This document shows positions 1,614 through 9,088 of a stretch of DNA of 9,088 nucleotides, one piece after another. This DNA is from a virus (lineage: Duplodnaviria > Heunggongvirae > Uroviricota > Caudoviricetes). Below the pieces are notes generated by a model. It saw only the letters and a program-made list of their open reading frames with translations, was not told the DNA's origin and made no database searches. The DNA lies in IMG/VR virus record IMGVR_UViG_2684622669_000014; one strand, written 5' to 3'. Numbering within the stretch: the first letter of the stretch is position 1; the number at the start of each line of letters is the position of its first letter. Made by a program: the position numbers and the translations under genes.

Positions 1614-1955
1614 GTGACCGTGAGAGCACTACTGACCCCTGAAATTGCCCCGCGTATGGGGATCGTATTGTTCAGGCCAGGTTCAGAGCTGATGCCCCTG
1701 TTTATGCAGGGGCGTGTCCTGCTGGAGCCTGAGCCGGAACGTTATTCATCTTTTGCCAGTGGTGCCGTTCCGGCTGCATCACAACCGCTGGCGGATGATC
1801 CTGCCGTTCGGGCCGTGTTCCGCAATGAGGCAGTGATCCGTCGTGCTGGTGGCGTGGAATGTCTTGAAAGCTGGTTACTTCGTGAAAAAGGCTGCCAGTG
1901 GCCTCATTCCGACTGGCACAGCGAGAACATGACCACAATGCGAAGCAACGGATAA
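1614..1955 (+). CDS. Hypothetical phage protein; possibly the N-terminal part of a YdfU/DUF968-like gene that continues in another frame
   Basis: 113-aa ORF starting with GTG immediately after the KilA-N stop. No recognisable motif. The downstream frame-1 ORF is open from 1933 and overlaps this ORF's 3' end, suggesting one gene interrupted by a frameshift. Confidence 0.5.
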   Translation: MTVRALLTPEIAPRMGIVLFRPGSELMPLFMQGRVLLEPEPERYSSFASGAVPAASQPLADDPAVRAVFRNEAVIRRAGGVECLESWLLREKGCQWPHSDWHSENMTTMRSNG

Positions 1956-1968
1956 CTGTGCCCGCTGG

Positions 1969-2529
1969 GTGTTGTCTGTTGTGCGTCGGGATCTCGGTTT
2001 TGATGACAGTCACGTTGTGACAATGCCGGAACTATGCTGGTGGCTGATTCGTAATGATCTGGCGGATGCCTTACCGGAAAGTGCAGCCCGTAAGGCACTG
2101 AGATTACCGAAGCCTTTTGTGCCGTCTGTCACCCGGGAAAGTGACCTAGTGCCTTCGGTTCCTGCCACCAGCATCATCCAGAATAAAGCGAAAAAGGTGC
2201 TGGCGCTGAAAGTGGATCCGGAGTCGCCGGACTCTTTTATGTTACGCCCAAAACGTCGCCGCTGGGTTAATGAAAAGTACACGCGATGGGTTAAGACGCA
2301 GCCGTGCGCATGTTGTGGAAAACCTGCTGATGATCCCCACCACCTGATAGGCCACGGTCAGGGTGGAATGGGGACAAAAGCGCATGACCTCTTTGTGTTG
2401 CCTTTGTGCAGAAAGCATCACGACGAGCTGCATGCGGATACTGTGGCATTCGAAGAGAAGTATGGCTCCCAGCTGGAGCTGATATTTCGTTTTATCGATC
2501 GTGCGCTGGCGATTGGTGTGCTGGCCTGA
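1969..2529 (+). CDS. YdfU/DUF968-like prophage protein with Cys/His cluster (putative zinc-binding, HNH-like)
   Basis: 186-aa ORF containing [14 protein letters not shown] ... CRKHHDELH. Sits immediately upstream of Q, as the DUF968 gene ydfU does beside the Q homolog in the K-12 Qin prophage (from memory). Start is uncertain: GTG 1969 or ATG 2027, both without a clear SD. Confidence 0.6.
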
Positions 2530-2546
2530 TTTTGTGGAGAAAGTTG

Positions 2547-2924
2547 ATGCGTGATATTCAGATGGTTCTTGAGCGTTGGGGAGCGTGGGCGGCTAATAAT
2601 CATGAAGATGTGACTTGGTCGTCCATTGCCGCCGGTTTTAAGGGATTAATTCCTTCAAAAGTAAAATCTCGCCCACAATGTTGTGACGATGACGCGATGA
2701 TCATTTGCGGGTGCATGGCCCGTCTGAAAAAGAACAACAGCGATTTGCATGATTTATTGGTGGACTATTATGTCGGCGGCATGACTTTTATGGCGCTTGC
2801 ACGTAAGCATGGGCGATCTGATTGTTGGGTTGGCAGGATGCTCCAGAAAGCTGAGGGCGTAGTGGAGGGTATGCTGATGGTGTTGGATCTCCGATTGGAG
2901 ATGGATGCTGATTGTTCGAAATAA
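2547..2924 (+). CDS. Q: Late-gene antiterminator Q (phage 21/QuuD-type)
   Basis: ORF track gives 2406..2924, but the protein from the internal ATG 2547 ([34 protein letters not shown]...[16 protein letters not shown]...) matches the DLP12 QuuD-type Q antiterminator as I recall it, has an SD GGAG at 2536-2539, and avoids overlapping the upstream gene. Confidence 0.9.
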
Positions 2925-2936
2925 TTAAAGGAAAAG

Positions 2937-2965
2937 TTGCTGTCTGATTGTCATTAGTCTAACAT
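2937..2965 (+). promoter_or_regulatory. Candidate late promoter pR' (-35 TTGCTG, 17-nt spacer, -10 TAACAT); a Q-utilisation (qut) site is expected within or just downstream
   Basis: TTGCTG at 2937-2942 and TAACAT at 2960-2965, just after the Q stop. A start near 2972 with termination at tR' near 3051 would give a short ~80-nt leader as in lambdoid late operons. Hexamers are non-consensus; assignment is by position. Confidence 0.35.
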
Positions 2966-3022
2966 TTTAAATGTTGGAATCGCAACGTAGTTATTATCAT
3001 ATAACAGCTTGTTTCCTGATTT

Positions 3023-3051
3023 AGCCAGCCTCCCCAAAGGCTGGTTTTTTT
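3023..3051 (+). terminator. Rho-independent terminator, candidate tR' (target of Q antitermination)
   Basis: GC-rich hairpin CCAGCC(3025-3030)-loop TCCCCAAA-GGCTGG(3039-3044) followed by T-run 3045-3051. The minus-strand reading has no U-tail, so it is + oriented. Confidence 0.7.
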
Positions 3052-3079
3052 CTAATAAGTATTATTTCGGGTAGGGATT

Positions 3080-3604
3080 TTATTGTTTAACCCATAATAA
3101 TTCATTGACATTGAATCCCAACTTTTGAGCGGTTCGCACATAGTCTGCTTTTACTTTATCTGGAATAGTTGGGGTCCTTGCCAGAATCCATAGGTATTCT
3201 CTGTTCGGACCACTGACAAGAGCATACTTATACTCATCATCCAGTTTGATTACATTATAGCCACCATAGAAGGGGCCAAAAAACGAAACCTTCAACGCTG
3301 CAGTTTTAGTATCTCCAGTAAAGTATGCTTTACCTTCGCTCTCGCTCCATTTATTTTTCGTTGGATCGTATCCACGGTTAAGTACACGAATCCCTCCGTC
3401 GTTCCGTTTTCCATAAGTAGCGCTGACCTGTTCCAGACTACGTTCGAACCGGTTCTCGAGGCGAGCTATTTCATACCATTTTCCGAGGTAGCGGTTGGCG
3501 TCAAAATTTGTAATCGGCTGCACACCTTTAGGTGGTGTCGGGGCCTTACATGCTATAAGAGTGAAAGAGAGTGCAATGCCAGTCAACACAGGCCATAACT
3601 TCAT
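3080..3604 (-). CDS. Bacterial lipocalin (Blc-like) outer-membrane lipoprotein
   Basis: 174-aa ORF with a lipoprotein signal peptide and lipobox (LIAC) and lipocalin motifs close to E. coli Blc as I recall it (NFDANRYLGKWYEIARLENRFER, GKAYFTGDTKTAALKVSFFGPFYGGYNVI, YLWILARTP). Convergent with late transcription from pR'. Confidence 0.9.
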   Translation of the reverse strand: MKLWPVLTGIALSFTLIACKAPTPPKGVQPITNFDANRYLGKWYEIARLENRFERSLEQVSATYGKRNDGGIRVLNRGYDPTKNKWSESEGKAYFTGDTKTAALKVSFFGPFYGGYNVIKLDDEYKYALVSGPNREYLWILARTPTIPDKVKADYVRTAQKLGFNVNELLWVKQ

Positions 3605-3796
3605 AATAAATCCTGTACTTTTGATAGTTGAGAGTAAGTATGAAAGATAGATGATTACGACCGATCACTTAAAGAACTTTCATACTATATTAGGAATAGT
3701 CCATAACAGAAAAATTGTCAGTGATGACGCCAGAAAGGCAATTTATTCCGTGCACTACACAGTTTATGTGTTAATGAATTAGTCAAGGGGGAGGAT

Positions 3797-4756
3797 ATGA
3801 TAAAAAAACCTGTGATTGGAATTAGCGGTTGTTTGGCCGGTTCTGCTGTTCGTTTTGATGGTGGTCACAAAAGAGCTGACTTTTTAATGGACAAATTAGT
3901 GGAATGGGTAACATTCAGACCAGTATGTCCGGAAATGGCTATAGGGCTGCCAGTTCCGCGTCCTGCTCTACGTCTTGTGCGCTCGACGCAAGGAAATATA
4001 CGGATGTGTTTCAGCCACGACCAGAATGAGGATGTGACAGAGAGAATGACAGAGTTTAGTCGTTCTTATATGGACAAATTAAAGGATGTATCGGGGTTTG
4101 TGGTTTGTGCTAAATCTCCCAGCTGTGGCATGGAGCGCGTGCGTGTCTATGATGAAAATGGTAATCGAGGTCGTAAAGATGGAGTGGGACTATTTACGAG
4201 CACTTTGATGGAAAAGTTTTCCTGGCTACCGGTTGAAGAGGATGGGCGATTACATGATCCAGTGCTTCGTGAGAATTTTGTTGAAAGAGTTTTTGCTTTG
4301 CATGAGCTCAATCACCTTTACAAGGAGAAATTATCAAGAAGAGAGTTATTAGCTTTTCATAGTCGTTATAAGCTTCAGTTGTTGGCGCATAGTCAGGCAG
4401 GCTATAAAGATATGGGACCATTTGTGGCTGCAATACACGAGTGGGCGGACCTTGAATCATACTTTGAGGTGTATCGTGATAAGCTGATGGCGATTCTCAG
4501 AAAACCTGCATCACGTAAAAATCACACGAATGTGCTGATGCATATACAGGGGTATTTTAGTAACTACTTAAGTACACGCCAGCGTAAAGAGTTGAGCGAG
4601 GTTATACTTAACTATCGTTCTGGCACATTACCTCTTCTTGCGCCGTTGACTCTGCTGAAGCATTATCTGGGTGAGTATCCTAATGACTACTTGCTTACAC
4701 AGAATTACTTCGATCCCTATCCGGACGAACTGGCTCTAAGACTGATGGTAAATTAA
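3797..4756 (+). CDS. DUF523-DUF1722 fusion protein (TudS-like Fe-S thiouracil-desulfidase domain plus YbgA-like C-terminal domain)
   Basis: 319-aa ORF with strong SD GGGGGAGG 6 nt upstream. N-terminal domain carries the conserved cysteines expected of DUF523/TudS [4Fe-4S] proteins (GISGCLAG, PVCPE, CAKSPSCG); C-terminal half resembles DUF1722/YbgA. Mid-range GC, unlike the phage backbone. Confidence 0.85.
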   Translation: MIKKPVIGISGCLAGSAVRFDGGHKRADFLMDKLVEWVTFRPVCPEMAIGLPVPRPALRLVRSTQGNIRMCFSHDQNEDVTERMTEFSRSYMDKLKDVSGFVVCAKSPSCGMERVRVYDENGNRGRKDGVGLFTSTLMEKFSWLPVEEDGRLHDPVLRENFVERVFALHELNHLYKEKLSRRELLAFHSRYKLQLLAHSQAGYKDMGPFVAAIHEWADLESYFEVYRDKLMAILRKPASRKNHTNVLMHIQGYFSNYLSTRQRKELSEVILNYRSGTLPLLAPLTLLKHYLGEYPNDYLLTQNYFDPYPDELALRLMVN

Positions 4757-5107
4757 TTGTATGCGATATCATCCAAAAGGATGAGTTCCTGCATGCAGGA
4801 TATTTACAATCGTAAAAACTACACTATGATACCCAGAGTGTCAGTTTGTATAAAAACTCTGTTTACGCTGAAGAAACCATTGAGATGCAACTTAAAGTTG
4901 GTAAACATGCCAGTCAAAATATATAATATTATGATTCCACGCAGCTATATATAATATAACAGATTGGTTTAATAATTTGCCTTTGTGAGTTAAATACATA
5001 ATTTTATACTTGTGATGCAATGAGATTTTCCTTATTGTTGAACTGGCGAATATTGATTTTCCACCTATACTTACCTGGTGTAACCCCAATGATATCAGGT
5101 GGATAAT

Positions 5108-5839
5108 ATGCCATACATATGTTCTATCATTTTGGTGTTGAACTCGTTTGATGTCCGAATTGGTAAAGAAGATATTTTGTTTAAAAAAGGAAGTGCTGTT
5201 CTCATTGATTACAATTTAAAAGATTTTTTTTCATCAAATATAGATCATGTAATGATCGTAGATATTGAAGAGAAAACAGTTAATGATTTCTTTAAAAGCA
5301 ATACACTCTCACCTTTTTCTGTAAGAAGGTTTTATCCGGCATACTTGATGGTGGAGTGTGAAGATTTTTCATTGTTAAAGAATTTGATTGCATGCTTGAA
5401 TTGTGATGGCAGAACTGTGGATTTTGTTAGAAATCAAATATCACTTGCATGTCTTGCTATCTTATCTTCAGAGAAAATAGTGCAAAGTTTTTTATTTGGA
5501 TGTCTTAATAGTTTAGGAAGTAAAGTTAAGGCTATTATTCACACGGATATATCTGCAGCATGGAGACTTTGTGATATATCTTCAAGACTGTATTTGAGTG
5601 AAAGTCTGTTAAAAAGAAAATTAAAGCACGAAGGCTTATCATTTAGTAAGTTAATTCTTGAAGAGCGAATGGTGATGGCGGAAAGGTTATTAAGCTACAA
5701 TTTATATTCTGTTGGAAAAGTTGCTGAGATATGCGGTTATGAAAACACGTCATATTTTGTAAGTGTTTTCAGAAGATATTTTGGTGTTCCTCCCCATCAA
5801 TATTCATCAAGATTTTTTTTAGAAAAAGACATGATGTAA
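5108..5839 (+). CDS. AraC/XylS-family transcriptional regulator (Rns/GadX-like, AT-rich)
   Basis: C-terminal ~100 aa show the AraC double-HTH signature (LSFSKLILEERMVMAERLL...SVGKVAEICGYENTSYFVSVFRRYFGVPPHQY). ORF track starts at GTG 5099; I prefer ATG 5108 with SD AGGTGG at 5097-5102. Strongly AT-rich by eye, with a ~350-bp AT-rich upstream region. Confidence 0.8.
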   Translation: MPYICSIILVLNSFDVRIGKEDILFKKGSAVLIDYNLKDFFSSNIDHVMIVDIEEKTVNDFFKSNTLSPFSVRRFYPAYLMVECEDFSLLKNLIACLNCDGRTVDFVRNQISLACLAILSSEKIVQSFLFGCLNSLGSKVKAIIHTDISAAWRLCDISSRLYLSESLLKRKLKHEGLSFSKLILEERMVMAERLLSYNLYSVGKVAEICGYENTSYFVSVFRRYFGVPPHQYSSRFFLEKDMM

Positions 5840-6027
5840 CGTGATGCGTTTTAATGATTTTGTAATTTTTGTATTTGATAAATGTATGATGCTTTCAGCT
5901 ACGCCAGAATAATCGCTGGTGTTTTTCTTTTTGAATAGATGTTCAAGCCTTACGCTAATGTAACTTCTATACCTTTCCTCTTCGTTCCGAACCGTGTACA
6001 CCATCCGTTATTTGCGGAGGTGAGGCT

Positions 6028-6243
6028 ATGAAATCCATGGATAAGTTAACAACGGGCATTGCCTACGGCACCTCCGCAGGCAGTGCTGGCTACTGGTTTT
6101 TACAGCTGCTCGATAAAGTCACGCCCTCACAGTGGGCAGCAATAGGTGTGCTGGGTAGCTTGGTATTTGGCCTGCTGACGTACCTGACAAACCTTTATTT
6201 CAAGATTAAAGAAGATAAACGCAAGGCTGCGAGAGGTGAATAA
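6028..6243 (+). CDS. S: Phage-21-type pinholin (class II holin) with dual-start motif
   Basis: 71-aa ORF matching S21 pinholin as I recall it ([56 protein letters not shown]). SD GGAGG 6016-6020. Two in-frame starts (M1-K-S-M4: ATG 6028 and ATG 6037) consistent with antiholin/holin dual start. Stop overlaps the endolysin start. Confidence 0.9.
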
Positions 6244-6740
6244 TGCCTCCATCATTACGAAAAGCCGTTGCTGCTGCTATTGGTGGCGGAGCAATTGCTA
6301 TAGCATCAGTGTTAATCACTGGCTCAAGTGGTAACGATGGTCTGGAAGGTGTCAGCTACATACCATACAAAGATATTGTTGGTGTATGGACTGTATGTCA
6401 CGGGCATACAGGAAAAGACATCATGCCCGGTAAAACGTATACCAAAGCAGAATGCAAAGCACTCTTGAATAAAGACCTTGCCACTGTCGCCAGACAAATT
6501 AACCCGTACATCAAAGTCGATATACCGGAAACAACGCACGCCGCTCTTTACTCATTCGTTTACAACGTGGGTGCTGGCAATTTCAGAACATCGACGCTTC
6601 TTCGCAAAATAAACCAGGGCGATATCAAAGGCGCATGTGATCAGCTACGTCGCTGGACATATGCTGGCGGTAAGCAATGGAAAGGTCTCATGACTCGTCG
6701 TGAGATTGAGCGTGAAATCTGTTTGTGGGGTCAGCAATGA
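6243..6740 (+). CDS. R: SAR endolysin (phage-21 R-type lysozyme, T4 lysozyme-like fold)
   Basis: 165-aa ORF with a Gly/Ala-rich N-terminal signal-anchor-release segment ([20 protein letters not shown]) followed by a lysozyme domain. Start overlaps the holin stop (TAATG); stop overlaps the Rz start (ATGA). Confidence 0.9.
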
Positions 6741-7201
6741 ACAGAGTAACCGCGATTATCTCCGCTCTGGTTATCTGCATCATCGTCTGCCTGTCATGGG
6801 CTGTTAATCATTACCGTGATAACGCCATTACCTACAAAGCCCAGCGCGACAAAAATGCCAGAGAACTGAAGCTGGCGAACGCGGCAATTACTGACATGCA
6901 GATGCGTCAGCGTGATGTTGCTGCGCTCGATGCAAAATACACGAAGGAGTTAGCTGATGCGAAAGCTGAAAATGATGCTCTGCGTGATGATGTTGCCGCT
7001 GGTCGTCGTCGGTTGCACATCAAAGCAGTCTGTCAGTCAGTGCGTGAAGCCACCACCGCCTCCGGCGTGGATAATGCAGCCTCCCCCCGACTGGCAGACA
7101 CCGCTGAACGGGATTATTTCATCCTCAGAGAACGGCTGATGACAATGCAGAAGCAACTGGAAGGAGCACAGGAATATATCCGTACCCAGTGTATACCGTG
7201 A
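6737..7201 (+). CDS. Rz: Rz inner-membrane spanin (i-spanin), lambda-type
   Basis: ORF track starts at 6725, but ATG 6737 ([21 protein letters not shown]...) gives the canonical Rz N-terminal TM segment and an ATGA overlap with the endolysin stop. Coiled-coil-rich periplasmic domain; near-identical to lambda Rz as recalled. Confidence 0.88.
6957..7139 (+). CDS. Rz1: Rz1 outer-membrane lipoprotein spanin (o-spanin), embedded in the +1 frame of Rz
   Basis: 60-aa ORF wholly inside Rz, SD AAGGAG 6944-6949. Lipoprotein signal with lipobox LVVVGC and proline-rich mature part ([15 protein letters not shown]), as in lambda Rz1. Confidence 0.82.
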
Positions 7202-7666
7202 TGTTTTGTTATGAAGGTGTTACTGGTAACGTTAAGGTAATTTAACAAAAAGTCAGTTCCGGACTTTATAGTGTGCTCAGATCATGGCCAAAAACGATTT
7301 CTGTGATAAATATTTTGAATATTATTTACAGATAAATGAAGTTGTTCGCATGGATGGAAATATTACAATAGAGTATGAAGTATATGTCCGTATTGTATGG
7401 GCAGAGAAGGCAAAAACACGGTAATTCCTTGTGTTGCCATTATACCTGATTGGCAGAATAGTTGTTTGGTTTTGAGTATATAGTCAGCGTTTTTTGTTCA
7501 GTAATAGCTCTCTCAAAAAATAATAAAATAAGGTGATTATTTGGGTTTATTATTTGGTTTTTTTTGTGTGTTGTTTTGTTGTTTTTCTGTGATTTATTTT
7601 TTATTGTTATTTCATTAAAGGAAGGTAAATTCAGGATAGCAGTCTGTAGATAATCGGAGGTCACTT

Positions 7667-7981
7667 ATGCTACATGATCACCTGGCAGAATGTCTGGAGA
7701 AAAAAGGACTGTACCGGAGAGCAGCTGAACGATGGGCAAAAGTGATGGTACAGCTAAGTGATGACCAGAAAAGAAAAGTGGCGGCACAGAAACGAGCAGA
7801 GTGTTTGCGTAAGGCGCGCCGGACTCCGGTTTCACCGGTGAACCTGACAGAAATAAAACAAGCGGTCAACAGACTACATTCTGAGTTGGGAATGGGATTT
7901 GAAGAGCGGCGGGTATTCCGACGATATAAAGGGACAGGAGAACAGAATACGTCCGGAAACGCGCGGTCAAAAAAATGCTAA
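7667..7981 (+). CDS. PerC-family-like small transcriptional activator (Pch/PerC homolog candidate)
   Basis: 104-aa basic ORF with SD GGAGG 7656-7660. N-terminal LEKKGLYRRAAERWAKVM resembles the PerC/Pch signature as I remember it (..LE.KGLWRRAA..W..V). Preceded by a long AT/T-rich tract. Confidence 0.55.
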   Translation: MLHDHLAECLEKKGLYRRAAERWAKVMVQLSDDQKRKVAAQKRAECLRKARRTPVSPVNLTEIKQAVNRLHSELGMGFEERRVFRRYKGTGEQNTSGNARSKKC

Positions 7982-8017
7982 AAAATATCTGAGAGAGTTA
8001 TTGCCTGTTACCATAAT

Positions 8018-8047
8018 AAAAAGCGACTTTAGTGGTCGCTTTTGTGT
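8018..8047. terminator. Candidate bidirectional intrinsic terminator between the convergent PerC-like and YlcI-like genes
   Basis: Hairpin AAAAGCGAC (8019-8027) - loop TTTAGTG - GTCGCTTTT (8035-8043), flanked by an A-run upstream and T-rich tail downstream, so either strand reads stem plus U-tract. Confidence 0.45.
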
Positions 8048-8061
8048 CATATATAAGTTAT

Positions 8062-8286
8062 TTAAGTAAACCTGTCTGAACAGGTGCTCTGGTCGTGTTT
8101 GTCTTTGTTGGGTAAAAATTGAGAATATTTTTCATTAATTAATCTTCTTCTGCAGGCTTCAATAACCCACGCTGAAAAATTCCCTGAACCTTTCTGGTCA
8201 AGAGCAATATTAATTTGTTCAATCATCTGGTTTGGAAATCGGATGTTGCGGGTTGTTGTTCTTCGGGTTCTGTTCTTCGATGACAT
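8062..8286 (-). CDS. YlcI/DUF3950-like small prophage protein (putative ribbon-helix-helix type)
   Basis: 74-aa ORF on the minus strand; NIRFPNQMIEQINIALDQKGSGNFSAWVIEACRRRL matches what I recall of DLP12 YlcI, which also sits immediately upstream of the Nu1 homolog. Confidence 0.7.
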   Translation of the reverse strand: MSSKNRTRRTTTRNIRFPNQMIEQINIALDQKGSGNFSAWVIEACRRRLINEKYSQFLPNKDKHDQSTCSDRFT

Positions 8287-8459
8287 AAGGTTGCCCCATA
8301 TTCAGTGTTGCTGATTTGTATTGTCTGAAGTTGCTTTTACGTTAACTTGATGCGGATCAATTAATACGATATCTGCTGCATAATTAACTGTTTGTCGTGG
8401 TTTGATGGCTCACACACATCGTTGTGATGAGCATTATTCACATGAAATTATTATCATTT

Positions 8460-8682
8460 TTGTGGGTCCTTTCCGGCGATCCTGCAGGTTACGGGGCGGC
8501 GACCTCGCGGGTTTTCGCTATTTATGAAAATTTTCCGGTTTAAGGCGTTTCCGTTCTTCTTCGTCGTAACTTAATGTTTTTATTTAAAATACCCCCTGAA
8601 AAGAAAGGAAACGACAGGTGCTGAAAACGAACTTTTGGGCCTTTGTCGTTTCCTTTCTCTGTTTTTGGCCGTGGAATGAACA
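8460..8682 (+). other. cos site: cosN cohesive-end sequence (8494-8505) with upstream cosQ-like region and downstream cosB (R3, IHF region, R2, R1)
   Basis: GGGCGGCGACCT at 8494-8505 is the lambda 12-nt cohesive end, followed by CGCGGGTTTTCGCTATTTATGAAAATTTTCCGGTTTAAGGCGTTTCCGTTCTTCTTCG, matching the lambda left end as I recall it. R3-like CGTTTCCGTTCT at about 8546-8557; inverted pair 8604-8616 / 8644-8656 corresponds to R2/R1. Confidence 0.85.
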
Positions 8683-9087
8683 ATGGAAGTCAACAAAAAG
8701 CAGCTGGCTGACATTTTCGGTGCGAGTATCCGTACCATTCAGAACTGGCAGGAACAGGGAATGCCCGTTCTGCGAGGCGGTGGCAAGGGTAATGAGGTGC
8801 TTTATGACTCTGCCGCCGTTATAAAATGGTATGCCGAAAGGGATGCTGAAATTGAGAACGAAAAGCTGCGCCGGGAGGTTGAAGAACTGCGCCAGGCCAG
8901 CGAGGCAGATCTCCAGCCAGGGACTATTGAGTACGAACGCCATCGACTTACGCGTGCGCAGGCCGACGCACAGGAACTGAAGAATGCCAGAGACTCAGCT
9001 GAAGTGGTGGAAACCGCATTCTGTACTTTCGTGCTGTCGCGGATCGCAGGTGAAATTGCCAGTATTCTCGACGGGATCCCCCTGTCG
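8683..9087 (+). CDS. nu1: Terminase small subunit Nu1 (lambda-type), 5' portion; continues beyond the window
   Basis: Frame-1 reading from ATG 8683 is open to the window end (MEVNKKQLADIFGASIRTIQNWQEQGMPVLRGGGKGNEVLYDSAAVIKWYAERD...), matching lambda gpNu1 as recalled. Absent from the ORF track because no stop occurs in the window. Start is 190 nt after the first cosN base. Confidence 0.92.
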   Translation, partial: MEVNKKQLADIFGASIRTIQNWQEQGMPVLRGGGKGNEVLYDSAAVIKWYAERDAEIENEKLRREVEELRQASEADLQPGTIEYERHRLTRAQADAQELKNARDSAEVVETAFCTFVLSRIAGEIASILDGIPLS

Positions 9088-9088
9088 G

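Follow-up and report, generated by a model that had tools for sequence, protein, structure and literature searches.

Prophage-borne regulators of the AraC family connect lambdoid prophages with acid resistance and type III secretion of Escherichia coli. PatE and PsrB activate gadE and hdeA, both promoters having been shown to be bound by PsrB, and activation of gadE, hdeAB or gadBC by the two regulators is accompanied by raised acid survival (PMC10877973). Type III secretion is repressed by PsrA and PsrB through GadE and YhiF, patE and rpoS both display higher expression in stationary phase, and these relatives function from non-inducible cryptic prophages (PMC10877973). The same review mentions "six additional Psr homologs" and, with reference to Tree et al. 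2011, describes an association of psr with pch genes (PMC10877973). Expression of appY, located in prophage DLP12, depends on H-NS and RpoS (PMC10057817), and psrA is described in reviews to respond to an sRNA that represses Hha. A preprint reporting higher acid survival of E. coli Nissle upon overexpression of "PatE" (CIW80_12240) was set aside; RefSeq CIW80_RS12240 is bcsZ.

The DNA analysed here (the window, 9088 bases) is one entire contig of assembly GCA_001515025.1 and covers the part of a lambdoid prophage that is devoted to late regulation and lysis. Its left end harbours genes for a LexA-like DNA-binding protein, RusA and a KilA-N protein, followed by a disrupted DUF968 gene and the antiterminator gene Q. 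Downstream of Q, genes for a lipocalin (on the opposite strand), a YbgA/TudS-like protein and an AraC-type regulator precede those for holin, lysozyme, Rz, a PerC-family regulator, a DUF3950 protein and the small terminase subunit, of which only the beginning is included. The genes and intervals relevant to the regulator are as follows:

2547-2924, + strand: Q-family late antiterminator (Pfam Phage_antitermQ, 6e-51; gene call)
3023-3053, + strand: tR'-like intrinsic terminator just 3' of Q, a 9-bp stem followed by a T run (terminator scan and sequence)
3080-3604, - strand: Blc-type outer-membrane lipocalin, first of three cargo genes (NCBIfam Blc subfamily, 314.5 bits at a cut-off of 267; Pfam Lipocalin_2)
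3797-4756, + strand: YbgA-family protein with 2-thiouracil desulfurase domain and DUF1722, second cargo gene (Pfam PF04463 and PF08349, ~1e-40 each)
4757-5107, + strand: AT-rich intergenic region (GC 0.328), where alleles of the insert differ most from one another
5108-5839, + strand: AraC/XylS-family regulator; residues ~1-134 (5108-5509) form the N-terminal domain, residues ~135-243 the C-terminal double-HTH domain
6028-6243, + strand: P21-type holin, first lysis gene (Pfam Phage_holin_2_1)
7667-7981, + strand: PerC-family regulator (Pfam PerC, 5e-44), 103 of 104 residues identical to PchA (ECs_1091) of O157:H7 Sakai, an activator of the LEE (BLASTP)

Essentially the same prophage was found on a 361-kb contig of another assembly, with a single difference in 7144 bases over window positions 1945-9088; there the phage is complete, genes for repressor, replication and head included. 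In BLAST comparison with DLP12 of E. coli K-12, homology ends at about 2906 and resumes at 6017, delimiting an insert of ~3.1 kb at the place where DLP12 carries the porin gene nmpC. The AraC gene is the last of the three cargo genes of this insert. Its assignment to a late cargo island, made from the sequence alone, was thus borne out: it lies on the late-gene strand between Q with its tR'-like terminator and the holin gene.

Two further observations concern the DNA left of the insert and around its edge. The DUF968 (YdfU-like) gene is split at about 1944 into two ORFs (1614-1955 and 1969-2529), a frameshift attributable to ~80 bp that are missing relative to the near-identical prophage L009 (6757-6837), the product otherwise comprising 329 aa. 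Between Q and the lipocalin gene (2937-3053), a promoter-like arrangement (TTGCTG, 17 nt, TAACAT) is followed by the strong terminator 3023-3053, and such a short pR'-tR' unit could give rise to a small RNA resembling the StxS sRNA of Stx phages. The sole Rfam match, located on the tR' hairpin, was sub-threshold (28.6 bits versus 50), belonged to an unrelated family and was judged to be due to chance.

The AraC gene encodes an intact protein of 243 aa, the sole long ORF of this stretch spanning 5099-5839. ATG 5108 represents the start, also called by PGAP in strain CE10, and makes the protein begin with MPYICSIIL, which can be aligned position by position with the first residues of PatE, PsrA, GadW, AppY and YdeO; the motif M-x3-C-S-[VI]-I is common to all six proteins. 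The GC content is 0.313 for the coding sequence and 0.328 for the 351 bp upstream (4757-5107), compared to 0.451 for the whole window, 0.434 for the ybgA-like gene (both preceding genes ~0.43) and 0.491 for the lysis genes. The sequence-only reading had described gene and upstream DNA as far more AT-rich than their surroundings, and with 31-33 % GC versus 45 % overall they do form the most AT-rich part of the window: the binomial z-score for 4757-5839 is -8.9, the segment of 1083 bp with the lowest GC in the contig begins at 4800, and third codon positions of the gene reach a GC of only 0.258. The E. coli genome has a GC content of ~0.51. The AT content of 4757-5839 (GC 0.31-0.33) is hence well above the host average, a hallmark of acquired genes silenced by H-NS.

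BLASTP revealed PatE as the closest characterised relative, with 54 % identity over 235 aa, ECs_0287 having been taken as PatE by its position (Sp1 / O-island 8) and not by an accession from a paper. Full-length identities to PsrA (ECs_1087, compared with the upstream start described below), GadW, AppY and YdeO amount to 40, 34, 32 and 32 %, respectively. These alignments extend from residue 1 to about residue 235, so that homology to the branch comprising the GAD-type regulators is whole-length, and the suggested affiliation with PatE- and Psr-type regulators gained support, since the protein is closer to PatE and PsrA than to GadW, AppY and YdeO. The alignment to GadX is confined to the DNA-binding domain (41 % identity). 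A GadX-like double HTH at the C-terminus had likewise been proposed from the letters; both Pfam models of this domain exceed their gathering cut-offs (HTH_18, 54.9 bits at a cut-off of 33.6, residues 158-234; HTH_AraC, 44.2 bits at a cut-off of 26.6), identifying the domain as AraC/XylS-type double HTH, for which GadX is the best structural match.

No curated equivalog cut-off of NCBIfam was passed, YdeO and GadX included. The best model was that of YdeO (NF007407) with 127.5 bits over residues 1-236 versus a cut-off of 348, whereas GadX (NF007432) attained 85.5 bits versus a cut-off of 500 and HilD likewise scored below YdeO. Orthology to PatE would demand near-identical sequence and the Sp1 / CP-933H context; identity is 54 % and the locus is a different one. 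Among phage proteins, the family is PHROG 1450, labelled "unknown function", and a specific name was present in none of the sources, nor did the literature searched, which did not include Tree et al. 2011, Bender et al. 2012 and Yang et al. 2015, contain anything on this gene. The exact protein is recorded from both E. coli and E. albertii. Because of its full-length identities, the sub-cut-off curated scores and the missing name, we regard the protein as an uncharacterised paralogue within the PatE/Psr group and as orthologue of no named regulator.

Similarity to PatE is unevenly distributed, with 72 % identity in the DNA-binding domain and 40 % in the N-terminal domain. The putative first recognition helix (SESLLKRKLKHE) equals that of PatE at 11 of 12 positions, and the second recognition region is 69 % identical; in view of the latter value and the divergent N-terminal domain, specificity or signal input may differ from those of PatE. 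Searched alone, the N-terminal domain matched only 12 clusters among 1.84 billion representatives and is therefore a narrow, specific and fast-evolving domain.

The gene shares with patE (Z0321 / ECs_0287; CP-933H / Sp1, O-island 8 of E. coli O157:H7) its location on a prophage, its AT-richness (GC of patE, 0.35) and an upstream footprint consisting of a -35 TGG and a -10 TATACTT. In contrast, patE marks the end of a degraded prophage, with pinE and tail-fibre genes as neighbours, instead of lying between Q and holin, and has neither blc nor ybgA adjacent. PsrA and PsrB (psrA, ECs_1087, prophage Sp4) belong to the same branch; psrA is positioned downstream of Q on the late-gene strand and has pchA in the same prophage, just as a PchA-identical gene accompanies the regulator of the window. 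Identity to PsrA is, however, lower than to PatE, and psrA is neighboured by genes for a CAAX protease and tRNAs instead of blc and ybgA. The regulators of acid resistance in K-12, namely the chromosomally encoded GadW and YdeO and the DLP12-encoded AppY, display full-length homology including the N-terminal M-x3-CSVI motif, and appY resembles the window gene in its location on a prophage and in its AT-richness (GC 0.32); their genomic contexts differ, and the scores of the present protein are far below the YdeO and GadX equivalog cut-offs.

The deposited coding sequence of psrA from Sakai (195 aa, start at 18804 of L004 18678-19391) appears too short. Translation from the in-frame ATG at 18678 gives 237 aa with the N-terminus MVVVCSVIM, which fits the family motif, and a perfect TATAAT is present ~40 nt upstream of that ATG.

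An AlphaFold model based on 12 homologues (mean pLDDT 79) predicts a C-terminal domain that is helical from residue 136 onwards. The best solved DNA-binding domain for the model was GadX (3mkl; 40 % identity, target TM 0.86), while Foldseek retrieved Rns, CsvR and ToxT as best full-length PDB matches (E ~1e-10, TM 0.5-0.58, sequence identity 17-20 %). The Rns likeness suspected earlier therefore holds at the level of the predicted fold over its full length. It also raises the alternative of an Rns/ToxT-type regulator that is switched off by a fatty acid bound in the N-terminal domain and that targets adhesin or secretion genes rather than the acid-resistance island. Like the genes of the fatty-acid-responsive activators Rns, CsvR and ToxT, the gene is AT-rich and horizontally carried, its product shares the two-domain fold in the predicted model, sequence profiles reach regulators of this type too, and the neighbouring cargo includes a gene for a lipid-binding lipocalin. 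Rns and ToxT are, however, only 17-20 % identical in sequence and are not the nearest sequence relatives; the alignments to Rns begin at query residue 66-68 and miss the N-terminal region with the pocket residues H20 and R75; and the full-length sequence relatives are GAD-type, not Rns. Fatty-acid gating of this kind is thus considered quite unlikely.

The DNA between the ybgA-like gene and the holin gene contains the following candidate signals:

4785-4798, + strand: small hairpin (TCCTG-CATG-CAGGA) after the ybgA stop, putative (alignment of insert alleles)
4803-4830, + strand: distal sigma-70-like promoter candidate (TTTACA, 16 nt, TATGAT; 10 of 12 positions match the consensus), hexamers invariant in 5 of 5 aligned insert alleles and present in 73 of 78 IMG/VR loci
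5043-5071, + strand: proximal promoter candidate with -35 CTGGCG (5043-5048), 17-nt spacer and -10 TATACT (5066-5071) with a C before it; 70 of 78 IMG/VR loci have this candidate
5097-5102, + strand: Shine-Dalgarno sequence AGGTGG, five bases 5' of ATG 5108 (sequence; conserved in the 5-sequence upstream alignment)
5901-5930, + strand: intrinsic terminator (ACGCCAG...CTGGTGT, then T5CT5), located 3' of the AraC stop codon and 5' of the holin gene (terminator scan)

For the proximal candidate, the last 97 nt before the ATG were aligned from the window, phage 1H12, the more distant relatives P0013 and P0015, and patE. Invariant blocks in these five sequences are TGG at 5044-5046 (TTGGCA in patE), TATACTT at 5066-5072 following 17-18 nt further on, and the ATG with its Shine-Dalgarno sequence. 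Since the window gene and patE have reached saturation at synonymous sites (dS ~3.1), the conservation of a -35/-10 pair at fixed spacing is unlikely to be neutral. From this candidate, transcription is predicted to begin near 5078, giving a 5'UTR of ~30 nt. The idea of a long AT-rich leader consequently did not stand up: a promoter-like footprint located 36-65 nt before the ATG and conserved out to patE renders the 351-bp AT-rich stretch more likely to be upstream regulatory DNA than a long 5'UTR. A promoter scan yielded 13 sites versus 10.0 +/- 2.9 in shuffled sequence, i.e. no excess, and both promoters are proposed on the grounds of conservation only. A -10 element with preceding C (CTATACTTA) combined with a weak -35 resembles RpoS-dependent promoters. 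A link of the proximal candidate to RpoS is thus possible and would fit the stationary-phase rise of patE and rpoS.

The small hairpin at 4785-4798 reads TTCTC-CTTA-GAGAA in phage 1H12, and the two compensatory pair changes suggest a conserved small terminator or processing site. An RBS-sequestering hairpin or RNA thermometer was rejected as an explanation of the region next to the start codon (z-scores -1.7 and -1.1; pairing absent upstream of P0013, P0015 and patE). TCCACCT at 5060-5066, within the spacer region of the proximal promoter candidate, is the exact complement of AGGTGGA at 5097-5103; the two are paired in the minimum-energy fold and kept in 70 of 78 viral contigs as well as in phage 1H12. 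Such pairing could block translation on long read-through transcripts only. A scan for the high-affinity H-NS motif (TCGATAAATT) was uninformative, with 11 matches versus 12 expected and thus no enrichment. Silencing by H-NS is nevertheless plausible from the AT content and by analogy with what reviews describe for appY and psrA.

Downstream of the gene, the hairpin and T run at 5901-5930 are kept in every allele examined (L003, L027, L028 and the distant L030), including the locus with 56 % identity. A conserved terminator, conserved (predicted) promoters and the presence of nmpC in the corresponding slot of DLP12 are the traits of a phage moron. The gene's position on the late operon strand, directly between Q with tR' and the holin gene, would also be compatible with a protein that serves the phage itself, acting on lysis or late genes or in superinfection immunity and being expressed in the Q-dependent late transcript. 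Such a role appears very unlikely: the slot contains nmpC in DLP12 and the regulator alone in phage 82-like relatives, which argues against any core phage function; the conserved terminator separates the gene from the holin gene; its relatives work from non-inducible cryptic prophages (PMC10877973); and PADLOC recognized no defence system in any of the three cargo genes. The coupling of prophage state to host gene expression that the sequence-only reading had envisaged received no direct support either, as own promoter candidates together with an own conserved terminator argue against it and give the gene the appearance of being built for expression in the lysogen.

The insert was detected (at least 80 % coverage) in 994 of 5426 complete E. 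coli genomes, i.e. ~18 %, the prophages that carry it being DLP12-like (at argU) or Qin-like. Carriers include human, animal and environmental isolates and the neonatal-meningitis strain CE10. Among isolated phages, the insert is present in IdasGreatGrand, whose protein is 98.8 % identical, and in Jouyvirus 1H12 and related phages (83 %). The three cargo genes occur together in all of the best 80 IMG/VR loci that have enough upstream DNA.

Inheritance as a block, evident from the 994 complete genomes, the IMG/VR loci and the isolated phages, would agree with a local regulator that controls the genes for the Blc-type lipocalin and the YbgA/TudS-like protein and not host regulons. This is nevertheless unlikely, as close relatives (P0013, P0015, psrA and patE) stand without adjacent blc or ybgA, three of them (P0013, P0015 and psrA) after an antiterminator gene, and the characterised relatives act at distant host promoters (PMC10877973). 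P0013 and P0015 (64 and 56 % identity) directly follow antiterminators of other types. What recurs is accordingly an antiterminator followed by the regulator, rather than the block of three genes. Also speaking against local regulation, the AraC gene has, together with the DNA upstream of it, a separate history within the block: in the Qin-like prophage L003 this part shows 79-88 % identity to the window, compared to 98 % for blc and ybgA.

In L003, which carries the 88 % allele, a 55-bp insertion (about 4760-4815) is situated upstream of the gene between the two promoter candidates. BL21(DE3) retains only the left third of the insert (2876607-2877625), consisting of the lipocalin gene and a truncated desulfurase-family gene, the AraC gene being absent. 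A profile of species spread among genome contigs returned one close match only, on a misbinned MAG contig: the 3.2-kb contig L017 (JARKOR010000151.1), binned as 'Candidatus Nanosynbacter', holds a 98 %-identical copy. This contig is almost certainly a binning contaminant.

The gene is under purifying selection. Among three diverged alleles (83-88 % protein identity), overall dN/dS is 0.19-0.25, with 0.11-0.15 in the C-terminal and 0.31-0.41 in the N-terminal domain, the DNA-binding half being the more constrained. Intact copies make up 70 of the best 80 in IMG/VR, the remainder (8 to 10, about one in eight) being truncated or frameshifted, and several complete genomes have IS insertions inside the block. 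These defective copies are what could be expected of a decaying, functionless remnant, and their frequency among viral contigs implies that the gene is dispensable in some hosts. That the gene as such is a remnant is extremely unlikely in view of its intact ORF with a strong Shine-Dalgarno sequence, the dN/dS of ~0.2 combined with higher constraint on the DNA-binding domain, and the more than 1000 near-identical intact copies. Pseudogene status, named beforehand as a finding that would invalidate the assignment, is argued against by the same dN/dS and does not apply to the copy in the window.

The gene therefore probably represents a working transcription factor of the GadW/YdeO/AppY/PatE/Psr branch, carried as lambdoid prophage cargo (moron) with its own transcription signals. 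In the lysogen, transcription would probably start from its own promoter at a low, condition-dependent level, the proximal candidate combining a weak -35 with the -10 CTATACTTA, and the AT-rich DNA around this candidate would offer a target for silencing by H-NS. Via its two HTH motifs the protein may recognise AT-rich sites of the class bound by PatE and PsrB, i.e. at the gadE and hdeA promoters. Activation of gadE and hdeA would then lead to higher glutamate-dependent acid resistance and, in LEE-carrying hosts, to lowered type III secretion through GadE. Control of gadE and hdeA is inferred by analogy with these relatives; no gadE or hdeA sequence is contained in the window. During lytic growth, Q-modified polymerase would read through the gene, probably incidentally.

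The placement of the regulator as PatE-proximal paralogue is new, as are the extent of the insert's spread and its movement on active phages, the conserved promoter candidates and terminator, and the pairing with a PchA copy in the window's prophage. Nothing departs from the picture established for PatE, PsrA, PsrB and AppY, and no new type of mechanism is involved. Active temperate phages can transfer the gene between hosts. Provided that its action resembles that of PatE and PsrB, it would constitute a common, mobile and unannotated input into the acid-resistance network, extending to the control of type III secretion in LEE-positive hosts, and would strengthen the case made from AppY that AraC regulators of prophages are routinely wired into host stress regulons.

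The PchA-like gene is located 1.8 kb downstream of the AraC gene in the same lambdoid prophage, an arrangement of the Psr type, in which a prophage-borne regulator is accompanied by one of the Pch family. Pairing with pch is particular to the window's prophage variant, since none of the best 80 IMG/VR loci has a pch gene within 4 kb of the AraC gene; other carriers have bor/iss in this slot. One could further envisage lipocalin, YbgA/TudS-like protein and AraC regulator as a single phage-delivered sensing module, in which Blc would handle a fatty acid or lysophospholipid that is bound by the Rns/ToxT-like N-terminal domain. Together with PchA, one infection would then deliver both an activator of the LEE and a lipid-gated, GadE-mediated brake on it, i.e. 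an incoherent circuit. This scheme is decidedly improbable.

Just upstream of the PchA-like gene (7202-7666), a second AT-rich stretch (GC 0.31) was observed, and window positions 6798-8143 are 93.6 % identical to the Rz-pchA segment of the Sakai prophage Sp4. The early region of the window's prophage additionally encodes a second, longer PerC-domain protein of 164 aa, annotated yfdN (L009 3738-4232, L113 424-918), and the intact phage therefore carries two PerC-family genes.
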